Source: an uncultured virus (IMG/VR IMGVR_UViG_3300032305_002648)
Taxonomy: Duplodnaviria; Heunggongvirae; Uroviricota; Caudoviricetes
Strand: one strand, 5' to 3'
IMG/VR virus record: IMGVR_UViG_3300032305_002648
Length of the DNA: 64,000 bases
Shown here: positions 3,838 through 45,704 of the stretch, piece after piece
Layout: each line of letters starts with the position of its first letter
How positions within the stretch are numbered: the first letter of the stretch is position 1
Notes under the pieces: generated by a model
Database searches by the model: none
What the model saw: only the letters and a program-made list of their open reading frames with translations
What the model was told of the DNA's origin: nothing
Made by a program: the position numbers and the translations under genes

Positions 3838-4380
3838 ATGACTAAGCTAGCATACAATCCGCTCCCTTCGCTGGAGCTGCTTCAAGAACTTTTTGTGATT
3901 TCTTCCGACTCCCCAAGTGGGTTGCGATGGAAATCCCCTAAGGCAAGAAATGTTAAGGGCAATTACGTTGCGGGATCAAAAAGAGCAGATGGGTATTGGT
4001 ACGTAGGAGTGACAACAAATAAACAAAAACGATATTTAGCGCATAGAATTGTTTATTTTTTACAAACAAAACAAGACCCCGGTTTATATCAAGTGGATCA
4101 TGTCAACGGAACAAGTGATCCATTAACGCTTCGGTTGGCCATATATGTAGAAAACCAGGCAAACAGTAAAAAACGGCCGTCAGTAAATGGCCAAAAGTGC
4201 AGCAGCATGTATAAAGGCGTTACCTGGGATAAACAGGCTAAAAAATGGCGGGCCGGCATTGGGTTTAAGGGTAAAAAACTTTACCTGGGTATTTTTACTA
4301 ATGAAAAGGAAGCTGCTGCCGCCTACAATAAAGCAGCTATTAAATTTTTTGGTGAATTTGCAAACTTAAACAAAATTTAA
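3838..4380 (+). CDS. HNH-AP2 homing endonuclease-like protein (copy 1)
   Basis: YLAHRIVY, VDHVNG, SSMYKGV.W...KKW.A.I...LYLG.F....AA.AYN.AA...FGEFA; AT-rich relative to flanks. Confidence 0.92.
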   Translation: MTKLAYNPLPSLELLQELFVISSDSPSGLRWKSPKARNVKGNYVAGSKRADGYWYVGVTTNKQKRYLAHRIVYFLQTKQDPGLYQVDHVNGTSDPLTLRLAIYVENQANSKKRPSVNGQKCSSMYKGVTWDKQAKKWRAGIGFKGKKLYLGIFTNEKEAAAAYNKAAIKFFGEFANLNKI

Positions 4381-9404: not shown

Positions 9405-10028
9405 ATGACTGTTGAATTTGTTCACTGCACTCCCAATGCAGAAGCTTTGATCGTTAAAATGGCTCGCGTTTCCAATCCAGAAAACGAAAGCAACTTAGCG
9501 ACTGCACCAAAACTACTGAGGTATCTGATTGATCACCAGCACTGGTCACCGTTTGAAATGTGTAGTCTTTGTGTAAAGATTGACACTGAACGTGACATCT
9601 CTGCGCAGATATTGCGCCATCGTTCATTTAGTTTCCAAGAATTTAGTACCAGGTATGCCCAGGTACAGGAACTTACTATTCCAAAATTGCGTAAACAGGA
9701 TTTAAAGAATAGACAAAATAGTACAAATGATCTTGATTTAGGTACAGTGGATGTTTTAACCGAAGAAATTATGACGTTATACACGCAAGCTAGCGAACTT
9801 TATCAAGACATGCTTGACAATGGTGTAGCTAAAGAATGTGCACGTCGCATTCTTCCGCTCAGTACACAAACTACTTTATATATGCATGGCACTTTGCGGT
9901 CGTGGATACATTACATCAATGTGCGTACTGATCCAGGTACACAGCTAGAGCATCGATTAATTGCAGAAAACTGCAAACAAATCTTCATTGAACAATTCCC
10001 TACTATTGGTGAGGCTGCATTCAAATGA
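9405..10028 (+). CDS. thyX: FAD-dependent thymidylate synthase
   Basis: HWSPFE, QILRHRSFSFQEFSTRY (RHRx7S motif), ECARRILP, Q.EHR. Confidence 0.98.
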   Translation: MTVEFVHCTPNAEALIVKMARVSNPENESNLATAPKLLRYLIDHQHWSPFEMCSLCVKIDTERDISAQILRHRSFSFQEFSTRYAQVQELTIPKLRKQDLKNRQNSTNDLDLGTVDVLTEEIMTLYTQASELYQDMLDNGVAKECARRILPLSTQTTLYMHGTLRSWIHYINVRTDPGTQLEHRLIAENCKQIFIEQFPTIGEAAFK

Positions 10029-10336
10029 CTAATCAACAACACCCAATCACACCACCGCCTGGGTTGGTGGAACAGTGGCATTCCAACTCACCTCTTGATC
10101 GAGGTTTAACTCTTGCCACAAAAGCCGCCCAATGGGGTGCCGACCAGGAGCTGGAGGCGTGTTGCCAGGTGATTAAAACCAAGTACGGCGGTGGCAGCAG
10201 GCTCCGCGCCGCCCGCCGCCCCAAGCCGCCGAGCTTGAAGAAGCAGGCGCTGGCTGCGTTGGAGCGCCGCAAGTACATCATGGACGAGAAAGATCTTGAC
10301 ATTCTTTGCCGCGCCGTGGGGGCATTGCCCGAATGA
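10025..10336 (+). CDS. Hypothetical modular phage protein, paralogue of 2..394
   Basis: HPITPPP.LV.QW, AAQWGADQELEACC, AARRPKPPSLKKQALA. Confidence 0.85.
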   Translation: MTNQQHPITPPPGLVEQWHSNSPLDRGLTLATKAAQWGADQELEACCQVIKTKYGGGSRLRAARRPKPPSLKKQALAALERRKYIMDEKDLDILCRAVGALPE

Positions 10337-12328: not shown

Positions 12329-12791
12329 TCGGTGTTACGTCAAATAGTTCCCGGATGGTGTCATCTGAATAGGGTGGCCGGTACCAGAAGAACTTCTTCT
12401 CATGGAAATCAATGACCCATTCGGGGTGATGTCGATGCCACCGAGACCAAGTCTTAAATTGTTGTTCTGGTTTTGCACTGGTGCAATCCAAAAACAAAAC
12501 ATCGCCGCCCTCAATGTTCCATCGAATCCTTAAGACTTCATTAAACCCCGCAATGATAGTTTTGATCCCTTGATTCCCCAGTAGTTTTTTATCCAATTTT
12601 CTCCTGCGTTTGTTCTTGCGCTTATGGTACCAATCTCTTTGCTCGCGTGGTGAGCCACCGACGACGAAACCCACACCCCAAACCCAGTGGCCTAGAGTGT
12701 ACTCGTGTAGCGGTTCAAGAAAAATACGACAGCGCTGGTCACCAACTATAAAAGTGCTGGTTTTGAATTTGCGTTTTGGGCGGTAAGTCAC
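12192..12791 (-). CDS. Hypothetical basic protein
   Basis: 199 aa ORF; GTG overlaps HNH stop (GTGA). Confidence 0.7.
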   Translation of the reverse strand: MTYRPKRKFKTSTFIVGDQRCRIFLEPLHEYTLGHWVWGVGFVVGGSPREQRDWYHKRKNKRRRKLDKKLLGNQGIKTIIAGFNEVLRIRWNIEGGDVLFLDCTSAKPEQQFKTWSRWHRHHPEWVIDFHEKKFFWYRPPYSDDTIRELFDVTPIIPADPLANTAGSRYYDCFCVRPKGNSKELSNDQITNLLSMVLAN

Positions 12792-13339
12792 GTACTTTTT
12801 TCAAGTGTGTTCAGCTTAGCAAACTCCCCAAAAAATTTGATAGCGGCTTCGTTGTAAGCTTTTGCTGCATCTATTTCATTGGTGAAATAACCAAGATAAA
12901 ACGCTTTACCTTGAAAACTTATATCGGCCTTCCATTTGCAATCTTTTTTATTCCATGAAACCCCTTTGTATGTACTGCTGCATTTTTTCCCTGCATATTT
13001 TTTGTTCTTTTCCCTATTCCCACCATTTTCGGATGTAGTCGCCAAACGCAAAATAATGTTATTTGACCGGCACACCACATGATCCACTTTGGAATGCCCT
13101 GGATCTTGTTTTGTTTGCAAAAAATACACAATTCTGTGAGTGTTGTACACCCGTGGTTTATCTGTTTTAACGCCTACTCTCCAGTATCCATTGTGATTTT
13201 TTCTTCCTGCTATGTCCCCGGCTTTAACATTTCTGGCTCTAGGAGACTGCCATCGCAGGCCACTTGGGGAATCAGCGCAGATTTCAAAAAGTTCTTGGAG
13301 CAGCCCCAGAGGGGGCAGGGGTTTTGCTAGATTTGACAT
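12788..13339 (-). CDS. HNH-AP2 homing endonuclease-like protein (copy 2)
   Basis: Paralogue of 3838..4380; start at ATG 13339 by alignment. Confidence 0.92.
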   Translation of the reverse strand: MSNLAKPLPPLGLLQELFEICADSPSGLRWQSPRARNVKAGDIAGRKNHNGYWRVGVKTDKPRVYNTHRIVYFLQTKQDPGHSKVDHVVCRSNNIILRLATTSENGGNREKNKKYAGKKCSSTYKGVSWNKKDCKWKADISFQGKAFYLGYFTNEIDAAKAYNEAAIKFFGEFAKLNTLEKST

Positions 13340-13405
13340 GTGACCTGTAATCGAGGTTGCCGGGGGCGGGAGGGTGCGAACCTCGCCGTCCCACAAATTT
13401 TAACA
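13340..13405 (-). promoter_or_regulatory. Extended -10 promoter plus structured leader of HNH-AP2 copy 2
   Basis: TGtTAAAAT...GGGACGGCGAGG-TTCGCAC-CCTCCCGCCC...ACAGGTCAC-ATG on - strand. Confidence 0.8.
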
Positions 13406-21540: not shown

Positions 21541-22326
21541 TTACTTGTTTTTAGGTTTTGTGGCGGAATCTTTCAATGCCTTATCGGTCGGGGCACCTTT
21601 GCTCCCCGGTTTGCGCATGGTTTCGCCACTGCCTTTCTCAATGCGCTCGCGCTTGGCGTGGATGTTGTCCCAGAGTCCGGGATCGCCTGGTTTTTTCTGT
21701 GGCACGGTGGTCGCCTCGTATAAGAAGTGATTGGACGTTTCTATCATACGCGAATTCTCCACGCTGTACTCAGTAAGATCAATCTCATATCCAGGATTTT
21801 TTTCAATTCTGTCCTTAAGCCATGCATCATCATACCAAATGATTCGATTGTTGGGGTACGCATAAAAATTACCATCATCCATTCGGAAGAAATGCGCACA
21901 CTTGTGCTCAGGTGTCTCACTGAAATTAGTATTGAGAGTTGATTTGGATTCCCAGGACCAATCCATGGTGAACATATAGATGCCGCCCTTCTTTTCACCT
22001 TTAAAATTGATTAGTTGTGCACGTAAATTTGAAAGTCGTGCTCTAACTTGTACATCAATATAGGGAGAAAAGCAATCCCACCACATGCATTCATTTAGCT
22101 CGGGCTTTGGTGCGTCTGGTTTCCAACAAAGGGAATGGATGGGGCGTCTTGTCCAATTAACACCATTTTCTAAGAAGACTTCAAACAATGGTACGTGTTT
22201 CTCCAGTGAAGCAACGGAGTGTACGTCACATAACGTTACATCCCCGTGCCCCTTTTTGTGGTTGTACAGGAATTCATTTCGGATATAGCAAGTAAACGTT
22301 GGAAGGTTGTGATTTAAATAACTCAT
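21541..22326 (-). CDS. Conserved hypothetical protein with basic C-terminal extension
   Basis: YLNHNLP...RNEFLY, WDCFS, PEHKCAH, YAYPNNRIIW; tail GLWDNIHAKR.RI..GSGE.MRKPG.KGAPT. Confidence 0.85.
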   Translation of the reverse strand: MSYLNHNLPTFTCYIRNEFLYNHKKGHGDVTLCDVHSVASLEKHVPLFEVFLENGVNWTRRPIHSLCWKPDAPKPELNECMWWDCFSPYIDVQVRARLSNLRAQLINFKGEKKGGIYMFTMDWSWESKSTLNTNFSETPEHKCAHFFRMDDGNFYAYPNNRIIWYDDAWLKDRIEKNPGYEIDLTEYSVENSRMIETSNHFLYEATTVPQKKPGDPGLWDNIHAKRERIEKGSGETMRKPGSKGAPTDKALKDSATKPKNK

Positions 22327-22377
22327 TTGATTTACTAACGTCTGCTTACTATAGTGTATTTGACCTGCAAAAATTAA

Positions 22378-22610
22378 TCAACGCTCCTGGATTCGAACCA
22401 GGTAATGTGAACCCTTGTCGGGCTGCCTTATCCTTTCGGCCTAGCGCTGAGGTGCGGGTCCCTTCCCCGCTGGGTTCATTTATGAGGTTAATGAACGCAC
22501 CCCTCCGTTTAGCCGGAGGTACACTGTAAGGAGCGACCTTACATGTGAGGAGCTACCTCGGTGTTGACACGCCGCCTTCTGGGCTATGGGCCCAACGCGC
22601 TACGTGCATC
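22378..22610 (-). ncRNA. Multi-hairpin ncRNA with initiator-tRNA-like anticodon arm and 3' tRNA-like domain
   Basis: At least six hairpins; 72 nt cloverleaf at 22378..22449 with GGTTCGAATCC T-arm; own sigma70-type promoter. Confidence 0.8.
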
Positions 22611-22616
22611 GGTAAT

Positions 22617-22644
22617 ATCATAGCGTATTTACCTTGGAAGTCAA
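22617..22644 (-). promoter_or_regulatory. Sigma70-type promoter for the ncRNA
   Basis: TTGACT-16 nt-TATGAT on - strand. Confidence 0.75.
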
Positions 22645-22733
22645 CTCCTAACGAACTTCTAATTTTCTTCAAATTAGGAGTTGCCGTCCGCCCCGTAACA
22701 CGTTAAACTACCCCTGTCCCCCGACTCAACCCC

Positions 22734-25746: not shown

Positions 25747-26078
25747 TGGCTATACAAGATCCAAGTCAACCAAATCATGCTGAGAGTTTGGTTTGGCTTC
25801 TCAGTAGCCTCTCCGACAATGGGAAATCACTTCGCTCATTCCTGAGCAACCCGCAGGAACTTGGTGTCTGCATCTTGACGGCTGGTCTGCTTGCCAACAG
25901 TAAACTTAGTATCGCTCCAGATGACGCTATCAAGGTGGCTCTAGAAACCTACGCAAAAGTTCAAGTTCACGTTGGTCAATACCACCAGGCAAAGTTCGCT
26001 GCCAATTTGGAAGGTGTATTTCAATCTGAACTGCCTACTAGGTACGAAGATCGGCCCGGTGAAGTTGAGGGCGATTAA
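25746..26078 (+). CDS. Hypothetical protein
   Basis: TAATG coupling. Confidence 0.7.
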   Translation: MAIQDPSQPNHAESLVWLLSSLSDNGKSLRSFLSNPQELGVCILTAGLLANSKLSIAPDDAIKVALETYAKVQVHVGQYHQAKFAANLEGVFQSELPTRYEDRPGEVEGD

Positions 26079-26461
26079 CCAAAGTACGTCCGTTTAATCA
26101 TTTTTCCGTAGCTTGAAGTGGCCTCAAATAAATTTTTAAGCACAGAAAAAGCTTTTTTAGGATCCGTATGACTGCCACAAGTAAAGGCATCGATATTCCC
26201 GTACTGCAATTCTGGCCAGGTATGGATGCTTATATGACTCTCCGCTAGCAATGCAAATGCTGTAACGCCTTGTGGTTGAAACTTGTGTGAACCAATCTTT
26301 AGTAGCGTGGCACCAGATTGCATTGCAGCTTCTCGCAAGGCACTACAAATAAAGTCTTCATCATTTAGCAGGTCAGAATTGGCGCCGTAAATCTCACCAA
26401 TATAGTGCTTACCTTTCGCACCCGACGCCTGCTCCATTTTCTTTTTGCATAGTTTATTCAT
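26075..26461 (-). CDS. speD: S-adenosylmethionine decarboxylase proenzyme (pyruvoyl-dependent)
   Basis: G.H, HKFQPQGVT, LLAESHISIHTWPE, D.FTCG. Confidence 0.95.
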   Translation of the reverse strand: MNKLCKKKMEQASGAKGKHYIGEIYGANSDLLNDEDFICSALREAAMQSGATLLKIGSHKFQPQGVTAFALLAESHISIHTWPELQYGNIDAFTCGSHTDPKKAFSVLKNLFEATSSYGKMIKRTYFG

Positions 26462-26538: not shown

Positions 26539-27456
26539 ATGACCCCTGCTGTCCTGGATATAACCGCAAAAATCCTGGAGCGGGTAACCGAAAAGGCCAA
26601 GATTCACCCCTCGTACCATGCCGATGCATCGTATGAGCAATTCTTGGACTATCGCAGCGACGGAAGTACAAGGGTCGAGATTAATGGCTCACGTCACTAT
26701 CGTACAGTCTGGGGGAATTTGCCCTCAGTAACTACGATTCTCAGTGCTACCAGTGGGAATAAAGCTGCCCTTGAACGTTGGGCAACGAAAAATCCCGGTG
26801 GCCGAGAAGCTGCAGCTGCCAGGGGTACACTCGTTCACTCATACATGGAGCGCTACCTTCTCGGTGAACGTGATTTCCCTGTCGAAGAAGCCGTAGAACC
26901 GTTTTGGAGGGGGCTACCAGAGAAACTGGACAATTTTGAACGTGTCATTTGGGCTGAAAACCCAGTCGGGGACAACTTTAAGTGGACAATTGGTGGTGAT
27001 GGCATTAGCAGGGTATGGCATCCTGGGGTTGTGGAAGGTAAGTTACACGGCTTTGCAGGTGCACCAGACATCGTTGCCGAATGGAAAGGGAAAACGGTGC
27101 TCGGAGATTTGAAAACCAGTAACGGCCTTTATTTTGGTAAATGGCCCGGCAGCGATACCCCTAAAAATGAGTATGGCATGCGGCGAGCAGGATTTATGAA
27201 GTACAGCAAGTGTTGCATGCAGATGGCAGCCTATGCTATGGCGCTAGAGCACACGTGCGGCATCAAACCCGATATCCTTATGATCTTAGTCGCTACTGTA
27301 GAACGCCCGCAAGTTTTTGCAATTCAAGGAGCTACCATTGAAAAATGGAAAGCCAAGTGGTTAGAGGCCGTAGAAAAATACTACACTGAGTATCTACCCT
27401 CAATCAATGCCCCTAAAATTGAAATGGAAGTTATCGATGGAGACAAAGTGGGATGA
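26539..27456 (+). CDS. PD-(D/E)xK exonuclease
   Basis: PSVTTIL, RGT.VH..ME, AG.PD, DLKTS, Q.AAY. Confidence 0.92.
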   Translation: MTPAVLDITAKILERVTEKAKIHPSYHADASYEQFLDYRSDGSTRVEINGSRHYRTVWGNLPSVTTILSATSGNKAALERWATKNPGGREAAAARGTLVHSYMERYLLGERDFPVEEAVEPFWRGLPEKLDNFERVIWAENPVGDNFKWTIGGDGISRVWHPGVVEGKLHGFAGAPDIVAEWKGKTVLGDLKTSNGLYFGKWPGSDTPKNEYGMRRAGFMKYSKCCMQMAAYAMALEHTCGIKPDILMILVATVERPQVFAIQGATIEKWKAKWLEAVEKYYTEYLPSINAPKIEMEVIDGDKVG

Positions 27457-28373
27457 AAGAAAAAAAATATAACTATGTTTACGCTGTTGTCAACTTTGAG
27501 CAACGATTGGCTTATATTGGCTCTAGGGGGGCTAATGTCTCGCCATCGGTAGACAACTACATGGGCAGCTTTAAAAAAGGCATTGAGTTTACCCCTAATA
27601 AAAAAATTATTCTTAGTGAACATTTAACACGTAAGGAAGCTTATGAAGCTGAAAGGGAATGGCAACTCAAGTATGATGTAGCAAAAAGTTCTTTATTTGT
27701 AAATAGAGGTATCCTTACGTCTTCAGGTTTTAGTAATGCAGGAAAAGTGGGGGGCATTAGCAGCATGCGAGGTAAAACCCATACTGTTGAAGCAAAAAAA
27801 CAAATTAGAGAAAAAATGCGGCATCGTTTTAAAAGCATCAATATTAAAAAGATTGATACAGGTGAAGTATTTAAATTCGATTCAATTGGACAAGCTTCAC
27901 GTGAATTAGGTGTGTCAAATGCTCAGTTAAGTTTTTTGTTGAGCGGCGCATACAAAAGAACCCATAACTATTGCCTTGAAAGCACTGATGTAAGCATTTT
28001 TAAAACAAAATTTATTTTAAAAAATGCAAGTACGGGTGAACTGGTTGAAGCAACTTCACGGGAAGAAATGGTACGTAAAATTGGGTCCAATTCTGGAGAG
28101 GTTTCTAGGGTTTTAAATGGCGTGCGTCTTTCAACCCATGGGTATTGCTTACCGGATACTGACATCAAGTTGCTTGGCATCAAAAATCGTGCTATAAAAC
28201 TTTTTAATACTTCTACTGGTCAAATAGAAGAGTTCAAAGGTGTTGTTCTTGCCGCTAAAAAAATTGGAGTAAGTTCCTCTTTGGTGTCAATGGTTTTAAG
28301 TGGTAAACGCCTTCGGGCAAAAGAGTACGTTTTGCCTCCCAAGCTGGCTGCAGCACAAGATTCTGCAGCGTAA
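27453..28373 (+). CDS. GIY-YIG homing endonuclease with NUMOD3 and repeated NUMOD1-type DNA-binding modules
   Basis: YVY-10-YIG, Y.GS, EA...E, N; GKTHT.EAK..I; three TGE...F.S...A...G repeats; AT-rich. Confidence 0.88.
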   Translation: MKEKKYNYVYAVVNFEQRLAYIGSRGANVSPSVDNYMGSFKKGIEFTPNKKIILSEHLTRKEAYEAEREWQLKYDVAKSSLFVNRGILTSSGFSNAGKVGGISSMRGKTHTVEAKKQIREKMRHRFKSINIKKIDTGEVFKFDSIGQASRELGVSNAQLSFLLSGAYKRTHNYCLESTDVSIFKTKFILKNASTGELVEATSREEMVRKIGSNSGEVSRVLNGVRLSTHGYCLPDTDIKLLGIKNRAIKLFNTSTGQIEEFKGVVLAAKKIGVSSSLVSMVLSGKRLRAKEYVLPPKLAAAQDSAA

Positions 28374-45242: not shown

Positions 45243-45704
45243 TTATTTATAATCCAGTGTACTCTTAAGCAACCATTGGAATTTCTTGTGCGCACGACCT
45301 CGCTCTACGGCCAAGTCCAAGGTTAGTTGATCGTTGATTTTATCTGCAGCCGCCGCCAGGGCTTCAAAATTGAGGGCAAGTTTATCGTGGTTTGCTGCCA
45401 GTTGTTCGATCAACTTATCTTGGGCAAAGCAGTCTTCCGTTAACTTTGGAAACGACGAAAAAGTTAGGTCTTCTACCGATCGGGGAGCACTGATGTCTAG
45501 GGAGCGGATATGCTCAGCAATGGTGTCAATACCTTCTTGCATCTCCTGATAAATCATCTCGGTCAATTTATGAATTGAATAGAACTTACCACCCATCAAA
45601 TTCCAATGAACGATGGTGGTTTGGTTATACACGTAGGTGCTATCCCGTAGCGTCTGTACAAGATCGCGGTAGCAGGAATCTTTTTTGTCGGTCGGTTTAA
45701 CCAT
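45243..45704 (-). CDS. dps: Dps family ferritin-like protein
   Basis: HWN..G..F..IH...E..Y......D.IAE.IR.L; H.K..W.L. Confidence 0.93.
   Translation of the reverse strand: MVKPTDKKDSCYRDLVQTLRDSTYVYNQTTIVHWNLMGGKFYSIHKLTEMIYQEMQEGIDTIAEHIRSLDISAPRSVEDLTFSSFPKLTEDCFAQDKLIEQLAANHDKLALNFEALAAAADKINDQLTLDLAVERGRAHKKFQWLLKSTLDYK

Follow-up and report, generated by a model that had tools for sequence, protein, structure and literature searches.

Here, we describe a locus on the minus strand of a 64,000-nucleotide (nt) stretch of DNA from an uncultured tailed phage (Caudoviricetes; IMG/VR record IMGVR_UViG_3300032305_002648), referred to below as the window. The locus ends in a 72-nt tRNA-shaped cloverleaf (22378..22449) with a 5-nt GACAA loop at the anticodon position. 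Judged by comparison with related sequences, this cloverleaf is neither a decayed tRNA nor a one-off; it belongs to a large, selected phage family. By the same kind of comparison, the ~160 nt upstream of it form a mosaic of reusable modules rather than one closed domain. In sister phages, RNAs of the same architecture carry the RNA antitoxin motif of AbiF/Abi_2 toxins directly 5′ of the tRNA-shaped unit. We tentatively propose, and hold at a little short of an even chance, that the locus specifies a modular protein-decoy or anti-defence RNA, whose tRNA-shaped 3′ end would serve maturation and stability.

The anticodon-less cloverleaf and its family

The cloverleaf reads from 22449 to 22378 and has all of the parts first noticed from the sequence alone: an acceptor (CAGCGCU/AGCGUUG) followed by A73, a D arm (GCC/GGC) with a 3-bp stem and a GG-containing loop, a T arm (CCUGG-UUCGAAU-CCAGG), the GACAA loop, A at position 8, and no encoded CCA. 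In this subtype, GACAA caps a 5-bp stem that lacks the bulged A of most family members. An additional pair between U(-1) and A73 (U22450-A22378), shared by 11 of 13 close relatives, extends the acceptor to 8 bp. The cloverleaf is the minimum-free-energy (MFE) fold of its segment (-26.9 kcal/mol; z -3.3, with 1 of 200 shuffles equally good), and the whole 246-nt RNA also folds better than expected (z -3.8, equalled by 0 of 200 shuffles). A covariance model of the GAYAA-loop family (R1) aligns the window in the register originally proposed, with 56.7 bits (E 7e-17), a score for a sequence that is itself part of the training alignment.

No catalogued RNA family covers the locus, as the sequence-only reading had supposed. 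ARAGORN reports 0 tRNA and 0 transfer-messenger RNA (tmRNA) genes in the 64-kb window, and Rfam 15 gives 0 matches at the gathering score; even at E<=10, the minus strand of the locus yields no tRNA, tmRNA, YrlA or abiF match. In its acceptor, D and T arms and in its tertiary nucleotides (G18 G19, T-loop UUCRANY), the cloverleaf is like tRNA (RF00005), but a 5-nt GACAA loop stands in place of the 7-nt loop with U33 and a 3-nt anticodon. It is contiguous, unlike the domain of tmRNA (RF00023, RF01851 or permuted), which is built from split ends and goes with a tag frame and pseudoknots. YrlA has an end-formed Ro-binding stem and an internal module, whereas here the acceptor is open at the 3′ end.

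An exact 25-mer of the T arm and acceptor matched no viral contig, so degenerate patterns were needed to find relatives. A pattern combining the loop hairpin and the T loop is present in 72 viral contigs, as 44 distinct variants, and a pattern of D arm and T loop, with the middle left free, in at least 120. Among the 120 D-arm-anchored matches listed, all have a 5-nt loop: GACAA in 114, GAUAA in 4, and GUCAA and AACAA in 1 each. An independent sample of 33 unique cloverleaves, reached via the unrelated upstream motif M1 (see below), contains 28 GACAA loops, 4 GAUAA loops and one 7-nt loop. The homologues are hence not ordinary 7-nt-loop tRNAs, an outcome that the sequence-only reading had named as refuting it. 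The exception is a window-type relative (L383:1652-1725; related loci and contigs are cited here by L numbers), which has UACAAAU where other window-type RNAs have GACAA, and which may represent a rare insertion variant or an assembly difference.

Covariation among homologues is evident in all four helices. In an alignment of 77 sequences, 92.2% of helix cells are paired, versus 30–46% when the partners are slid; 16 of 20 pairs are changed on both sides; and the covariation score is 0.62, versus at most 0.16 when slid. Position 7:66 is non-canonical in 61 of the 77. The stem below the pentaloop varies by compensatory changes, and the bulged A on its 3′ side is retained. Elements of the tertiary fold are also kept across the family, namely G18 G19, the T loop and, in most members, U8/A14. 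Taken together, the near-invariant GAYAA pentaloop and the bulged A imply that the tRNA-like domain would have a further, specific partner.

Most of these cloverleaves are embedded in ordinary tRNA arrays. ARAGORN sometimes names members tRNA-??? (ca), as at the six loci where a cloverleaf lies near a relative of the downstream 261-aa gene, or tRNA-Cys(aca). Carriers among cultured cyanophages include S-PM2, S-RIM8 and S-CREM1. The S-PM2 element (AJ630128, 164658..164729) lies between tRNA-Thr and tRNA-Ala, 3 nt ahead of the latter; it is unannotated, and the Rfam tRNA model does not match it at E<=10. By BLAST it is matched in 10 records, representing six cultured Synechococcus myoviruses, and none of these matches coincides with an annotated feature. 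In S-CREM1 (OP535465), the cloverleaf is at 9968..10039, flanked by the wcaG and manA RNA motifs and followed after ~500 nt by an abiF RNA (coordinates from Table 4 of PMC9964418). These motifs make up a non-coding RNA island at ~9.7–10.6 kb, from the list of which in PMC9964418 the cloverleaf is absent. A scan of bacterial genomes (one per species) with the loop and T-arm pattern gave 25 matches, which are mostly variable arms of class II tRNAs (at 13 of the 25 loci the ARAGORN call is Leu, Ser or SeC), so the scan provides no evidence for a bacterial home. Only L296 and L288 (L141 type) resemble the family. L296, a 413-bp contig filed under a Clostridium sp. assembly, has exactly the sequence of the cloverleaf region of S-PM2 and is probably phage DNA that strayed into that assembly. 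A tRNA-Sec identity, considered for some relatives, was rejected, as their scores of 21–31 bits fall below the gathering score of 47.

Several other RNAs were seen near family members. A second kind of anticodon-less cloverleaf (L003:2896-2971, L005:2896-2971, L069:4211-4286, L310:898-973) has the acceptor CACCUGG/CCAGGUG and a 4-bp stem with a 4-nt loop at the anticodon position. It directly follows the GACAA element or an abiF motif, receives no ARAGORN call, and scores 20–23 bits with R1. On the viral contig L082, a cyanobacterial-type two-piece (permuted) tmRNA at 39-289 (RF01851, 116.6 bits against a gathering score of 70; tmRNA_permuted, 80.1 bits) heads a tRNA array containing a GACAA cloverleaf, and L331:1006-1208 gives a weaker tmRNA match (66 bits). 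Finally, a conserved motif of ~50 nt (GAGGGUAAG..CUGUUAUAUCCUUGAGGUAUAU..CUCCAUCAA) lies directly before or after the cloverleaf in L085, L089, L099 and L117, which are cyanomyovirus-like contigs; it has no Rfam match in L085 or L089.

Upstream modules and abiF cassettes

The hairpins upstream of the cloverleaf had been thought to be closed by a long-range helix, GAUGCAC/GUGCGUU. That helix is absent from both the MFE fold and the consensus fold of 13 relatives. The 5′ GCACG pairs locally with CGUGU, and relatives change both sides of this pairing. It forms the lower stem of a 5′ hairpin, M1 (22567..22607, minus strand; core 22600..22573), which was delineated by a core pattern search and covariation. 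Above the lower stem come a GCGC/GCG stem, a conserved asymmetric internal loop (G versus AAG) and an upper stem of 6 pairs, capped by a conserved pentaloop with AUA at its end. The core pattern occurs at 102 loci (33 viral and 69 metagenome). Across 70 distinct sequences, 90.2% of cells are paired, versus 33–48% when slid, and the upper helix is paired in 98.6% of cells, with both sides changed in 3 of 6 pairs; many columns in these statistics are fixed by the search pattern.

Three further modules follow on the minus strand. M2 (22559..22547; GAGG-UAGCU-CCUC) and M3 (22543..22525; UGUAAGG-UCGCU-CCUUACA) are single hairpins of the MFE fold. M4 (22454..22519) consists of three hairpins, CCUCCGG-CUAAA-CGGAGG, GUUCAUU-AACCUCAUA-AAUGAAC and GCGGG-GAAGGGA-CCCGC, the second and third of which show pairs changed on both sides in the consensus fold of the 13 RNAs. 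M4 recurs, in different combinations of modules, in 10 further viral contigs and has no Rfam match at E<=10. The possibility that it is a diverged abiF motif was rejected, given its different topology, its lack of an Rfam score, and the presence of both motifs in L307 and L387; the loops of M4 and abiF have a short AGCCUC-like stretch in common.

The 13 window-type RNAs differ by entire cassettes. M2 and M3 together (22525..22559) are an optional cassette, both being present in 7 of the 13; L334 and L345 lack the whole block, and in four more RNAs it gives way to other sequence. L345 is reduced to M1, one hairpin and the cloverleaf, and four of the 13 have another 5′ scaffold. Contigs from other DNA samples break at module edges, 22375 and 22526. 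The wider contexts of M1 are similarly varied. In 40 of 89 unique M1 contexts, a GAYAA cloverleaf lies 25–397 nt downstream on the same strand; some others have real tRNAs (Met, Pro/Thr, Ser/Val) within 9–220 nt downstream, and the remainder have neither. An obligate tertiary partnership between M1 and the cloverleaf was rejected, as each often occurs without the other. Another recurrent 5′ module (GUUCCCGCUCUGC...CAUCGGGC) lies just past the promoters of L315, L405, L408, L411 and L412. Both it and a hairpin (GGUUCNGGAGGCGUCCGAUAACGUCUCCCC) combine with M1, M4, abiF and tRNA-like units; the repertoire of cassettes thus extends beyond those in the window.

One of the cassettes in sibling RNAs is of a known kind. 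The abiF motif (RF03085) is a 37-nt hairpin with a gathering score of 37 bits, and abiF RNA has been shown experimentally to be the antitoxin of AbiF/Abi_2 HEPN toxins (excerpts of PMC12373285 and PMC12737573). L387 has the full architecture of the window RNA and, in addition, an abiF motif (55.3 bits) that ends 5 nt before the cloverleaf. Canonical motifs lie 3–5 nt upstream of a GACAA cloverleaf in L086 (53.1 bits) and in L098, L113 and L125 (49.7 bits), and at the same spacing in L330 (55.3 bits), L315 (52.8 bits) and L326 (46.2 bits). L403 also contains the motif (53.7 bits). In L310 (52.2 bits) and L005, it is followed by the second kind of anticodon-less cloverleaf, and in L085 by a real tRNA. 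L002 has the same 5′ scaffold, then a true tRNA-Pro(UGG). The 3′ tRNA-shaped unit is exchangeable: it can be of the GACAA type, of the 4-nt-loop type, both in tandem, or a true tRNA-Pro(UGG).

We found no Abi_2 domain in the 77 reading frames of the window, and none in 35 frames beside 11 abiF-bearing phage loci, where the flanks span only 0.4–3 kb. Since no Abi_2 gene is seen in either place, the abiF motifs of the sibling phages would be orphan antitoxin copies.

Genomic context and expression

Promoter, hairpins and cloverleaf lie on the minus strand at the positions originally assigned to them. The sigma-70-like promoter (22617..22644) consists of TTGACT (22644..22639), a 16-nt spacer and TATGAT (22622..22617). 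It matches the consensus at 10 of 12 positions, is the sole promoter-like site on the minus strand across 1.8 kb, and suggests a transcription start near 22610. Close relatives retain the -35/-10 pair ahead of an identical RNA start, with the -35 element supplied by two distinct upstream sequences (one in L314, L334 and L407, the other in L323 and L320). An inverted repeat, CUCCUAA...UUAGGAG (22644-22680, minus strand), flanks an A/T-rich stretch and adjoins the -35 hexamer. Both L314 and L407 retain this repeat, which may serve as an operator or mark where the divergent unit ends.

The description of the RNA as stand-alone holds in part. It has its own promoter, but a same-strand gene begins 51 nt downstream, and no terminator-like site was found in the intervening spacer (22327..22377), which starts UUAAUUUUU and reaches the ATG (22326) of that gene. 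The gene (21541..22326, minus strand) encodes a 261-aa protein with a phrog_3704 match. At this same genomic position the RNA locus can be present or absent; for example, L006 and L010 have no RNA upstream of the 261-aa gene. Such presence and absence at one position is typical of accessory loci.

The rest of the window is clearly that of a phage, with genes for a family-A DNA polymerase, primase-helicase, ThyX, dCMP deaminase, lysozymes, and tail and virion proteins. The best identity of the polymerase to a cultured phage is only 42%, and DNA matches to the window sequence come from freshwater metagenomes. A blastn search of the locus against 50,697 phage records gave no match, and in the nearest record (G001, a 25.7-kb fragment) the locus is not matched. 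Accessory genes in the window encode an S-adenosylmethionine decarboxylase (26075-26461, minus strand), homing endonucleases, one of them NUMOD/I-HmuI-like (27453-28373, plus strand), two AP2-domain proteins (3838-4380, plus strand; 12788-13396, minus strand) and a ferritin-like protein (45243-45704, minus strand). A reading of the locus as an integration site (attP) was dropped, there being no integrase among the 77 reading frames scanned.

With respect to expression, a single freshwater RNA library yielded one 344-nt contig that spans 22371..22526 of a relative, corresponding to the cloverleaf and M4. In run X20, whose label as RNA is a guess, one 151-nt contig covers only 22375..22430. A joint in X2 (22450>22611) skips the 160-nt module block, one side of it being only 27 nt long at 88% likeness. 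Contigs from RNA libraries cannot show RNA ends, and stretches without RNA cover carry no information.

Possible functions and known systems

In the reading that we favour, the locus would give rise to a non-coding RNA of ~235 nt, running roughly from 22610 to 22378 on the minus strand. RNAs of this family would share a plan in which a 5′ M1 hairpin and variable, exchangeable hairpin cassettes precede a 3′ tRNA-shaped domain. The cassettes (M2, M3 and M4 in the window; the AbiF antitoxin motif among those of sister phages) would act as decoys that bind proteins. In the abiF-bearing siblings, orphan copies of a type III antitoxin would neutralise the host AbiF HEPN toxin, as pseudo-ToxI does ToxN. 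Retained in the tRNA-shaped end are the acceptor/T-arm stack and the D/T elbow, the features by which RNase P, the CCA-adding enzyme and enzymes that trim 3′ ends recognise their substrates; this end would therefore act as a built-in maturation and stability handle, fixing the 3′ end of the cassette RNA. RNase P would act at the 5′ end of this unit, and trimming and CCA addition would occur at its 3′ end; the replaced anticodon loop would keep it out of translation. What we observe directly is the sequence, its folds, the covariation, the mosaic of modules, the abiF cassettes of siblings and the lack of an AbiF gene in the DNA examined; transcription, RNase P cleavage, protein binding and any effect on defence are inferred.

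The case for such a carrier of decoys comes mainly from the exchangeable 3′ unit and from polymorphism among the cassettes. Moreover, imitation of a type III antitoxin by a phage RNA is an established escape route (excerpts of PMC3475682). Both a decoy and a processing handle had been among the suggestions of the sequence-only reading. Comparison leaves both viable and strengthens them, given the tRNA-Pro or second cloverleaf found at the same 3′ position and the abiF cassettes.

A number of observations weigh against this proposal. The window RNA has no abiF motif at E<=10, so the decoy role in this phage is extrapolated from siblings. An uninterrupted abiF core lies within 70 nt upstream in just 4 of 147 distinct cloverleaf contexts. 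M1 occurs without a cloverleaf in 49 of 89 unique contexts, and among 72 cloverleaf loci with 400-nt flanks, M1 is nearby in 9 and lacking in 63. The flanks in which Abi_2 was sought beside the abiF-bearing loci are short. The expression evidence is weak, with DNA carry-over possible for the 344-nt RNA-library contig. A handle needs no invariant pentaloop, the partner of which would fall outside the proposal, and a pure handle role leaves the retention of the cloverleaf inside tRNA arrays unexplained; in the S-PM2 array, real tRNAs could punctuate the transcript.

It is also possible, albeit less likely in our view, that the cloverleaf itself is the active part: a non-decoding decoy, or sponge, for a factor that reads the shape of tRNA or its acceptor end and ignores the anticodon. 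Such a factor might be a phage protein, a toxin that binds tRNA or a host defence enzyme directed at tRNA. Specific contact would be made through the bulged A and the GA(Y)AA pentaloop, the pyrimidine of which would be flipped out, and the upstream modules would be a leader or co-transcribed passengers. The breadth of the cloverleaf family, in the 72 and at least 120 viral contigs and six cultured cyanomyoviruses, far exceeds that of the modular RNAs, and its members sit mostly inside tRNA arrays. GACAA prevails both among the D-arm-anchored matches listed and in the M1-linked sample, above a stem that covaries freely; all elements of the tertiary fold are kept; and an identical loop in P22 boxB contacts a peptide (discussed below). 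However, sister phages can have a true tRNA or another anticodon-less cloverleaf at the 3′ position, an argument that the modular RNAs do not strictly require the GACAA cloverleaf, and no protein gene co-occurs with it, the cloverleaf being found at 6 of 80 loci of the neighbouring 261-aa gene. This possibility and our preferred one are compatible.

The same count speaks against a cis-acting 5′ leader that would control transcription, processing or translation of the 261-aa gene, a role we consider improbable. The RNA is on the same strand, 51 nt upstream of the gene with no terminator-like site found between them, and it precedes this gene in several relatives. The gene, however, has more than 517 relatives in viral contigs, and the 6 of 80 loci with a nearby cloverleaf led us to reject a linkage between the two. 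In addition, the RNA is 1.6 kb away from the gene in L001 and missing from L006 and L010, which do have the gene, and the same modules are found ahead of unrelated genes, tRNAs or nothing.

Alanyl-tRNA synthetase recognises G3-U70 without the anticodon, and the window copy carries both G3-U70 and A73, from which a chargeable, alanine-accepting mimic akin to the tRNA-like domain of tmRNA had been suggested. These nucleotides are indeed there, but neither is conserved among relatives. Position 3:70 is G-U in 5 of 13 window-type RNAs and A-U in the other 8. G3-U70 occurs in 3 of 33 unique M1-linked cloverleaves, all three of window type, and none of the correctly aligned rows among the 77 family sequences has it; elsewhere in the family, the pair is U-A, G-C or A-U. 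The discriminator is A, U or C among M1-linked cloverleaves and can also be G elsewhere. Since G-U swaps to A-U among near-identical relatives, G3-U70 does not behave as an identity element, and alanine charging is unsupported by the sequences. Neither ARAGORN nor Rfam finds tmRNA features, and we regard such a mimic as very improbable. Scarcely credible, finally, is a decayed or pseudogenised phage tRNA, or an odd-loop tRNA that still decodes. Placement among tRNA genes in many phages, the occasional ARAGORN calls and the 7-nt loop of L383 are in its favour. Against it, decay would not produce compensatory changes in all four helices or, in phages far apart, a 5-nt loop that hardly varies; three anticodon bases presumably cannot be displayed in the usual way by a 5-nt GNRA-like loop; and the Rfam tRNA model gives no score at E<=10. 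Overall, leader, alanine-charged mimic and pseudogene are unlikely.

A broader idea, doubtful at present but possible, is that freshwater and marine plankton phages run an RNA-only counter-defence toolkit, in which hairpin cassettes are shuffled in an exon-like manner. Cassettes such as M1, M4, the abiF copies and several others would be carried in promoter-driven RNAs ending in a tRNA-shaped unit. M1 and M4 would be antitoxin or guide-RNA mimics, imitating RNAs of defence systems not yet described. Apart from these, the GAYAA cloverleaf would be a widespread decoy, tying up a host factor that recognises tRNA while itself staying out of translation.

The kinds of RNA involved are known, namely tRNA-like 3′ modules and antitoxin-mimic RNAs; the cloverleaf, M1 and M4 are apparently uncatalogued. 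No Rfam family matched any of the three, and we found no description in the literature on phage tRNA-like RNAs without an anticodon, abiF together with tRNA, or S-PM2 non-coding RNA. A large, selected family of anticodon-less tRNA mimics, unannotated in the tRNA clusters of well-studied cyanophages, is testable in a culturable system. Phage non-coding RNAs assembled from interchangeable cassettes, one being the antitoxin of the AbiF system, a proposed ancestor of Cas13, point to RNA-based anti-defence beyond the single precedent of pseudo-ToxI. M1 and M4 may be useful as probes for host partners. For now, the value of this work lies in a well-defined set of RNA families, with functions proposed from sequence.

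Among known RNAs, the nearest in principle to our preferred reading are mascRNA and menRNA (MALAT1, MEN-beta; RF01684). A mascRNA-type module is cut by RNase P, which sets the 3′ end of the upstream RNA. There, as here, a tRNA-shaped module without a working anticodon loop ends a longer non-coding RNA, and the phage RNAs may be a bacterial-virus counterpart to the MALAT1-mascRNA principle of an RNA ended by a tRNA-shaped processing signal. The eukaryotic modules have no sequence relationship to the phage element, which differs in its near-invariant GAYAA pentaloop, complete D arm and hypothetical RNase P cleavage. The S-PM2 member gives a weak local RF01684 match on the T arm (13.4 bits). Other tRNA mimics, tmRNA and YrlA, likewise keep the acceptor/T-arm elbow without an anticodon. 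In YrlA, the acceptor is closed and the RNA ends form the Ro-binding stem. In tmRNA, where G3-U70 is invariably present, the two ends of the molecule come together to form the domain, with an mRNA-like part between them. The phage cloverleaf, in contrast, is contiguous and open-ended, with a full D arm and no Rfam match.

Two comparisons bear on the cassettes. The abiF RNAs of bacteria (including RCd22 of C. difficile and AbiFr) are matched by canonical motifs directly 5′ of the tRNA-like domain in same-architecture siblings, at 46–55 bits and so above the gathering score. The bacterial motif precedes a toxin gene, whereas no Abi_2 gene is seen at the phage loci, and the window RNA is without the motif. 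Pseudo-ToxI of phage PhiTE is also a phage non-coding RNA that copies a type III antitoxin, and the mechanism suggested for the abiF cassettes is modelled on it. Pseudo-ToxI, however, has tandem 36-nt repeats processed by the toxin and is not known to have a tRNA-like domain or mixed cassettes, and its defeat of ToxIN has been demonstrated experimentally, whereas the role of the phage cassettes here is proposed from sequence.

The pentaloop has its own precedent. P22 boxB, bound by the N peptide (PDB 1A4T), has an identical GACAA loop, which adopts a GNRA-like fold with the third base (C) looped out onto the peptide (excerpts of PMC12550061). The GA(C/U)AA variation in our family would fit an extruded pyrimidine. 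The boxB hairpin is free and lies in the nut site of an mRNA leader, whereas the phage loop caps the anticodon-arm position of a cloverleaf; no N-like protein was found, though no search was aimed at one. The element itself may have been met before. A 2023 screen of IMG/VR lists five candidates as 'likely tRNA or tRNA-like' that overlap ARAGORN tRNA calls (excerpts of PMC10690425). One of these, DNAVirus_215, is 87 nt long and is represented by 15 sequences, all from freshwater-lake tailed phages, sometimes overlapping tRNA-Cys calls; the excerpts of that paper assign it no loop feature, modular context or function. Compared by description only, DNAVirus_215 may be the same element as the GACAA cloverleaf.

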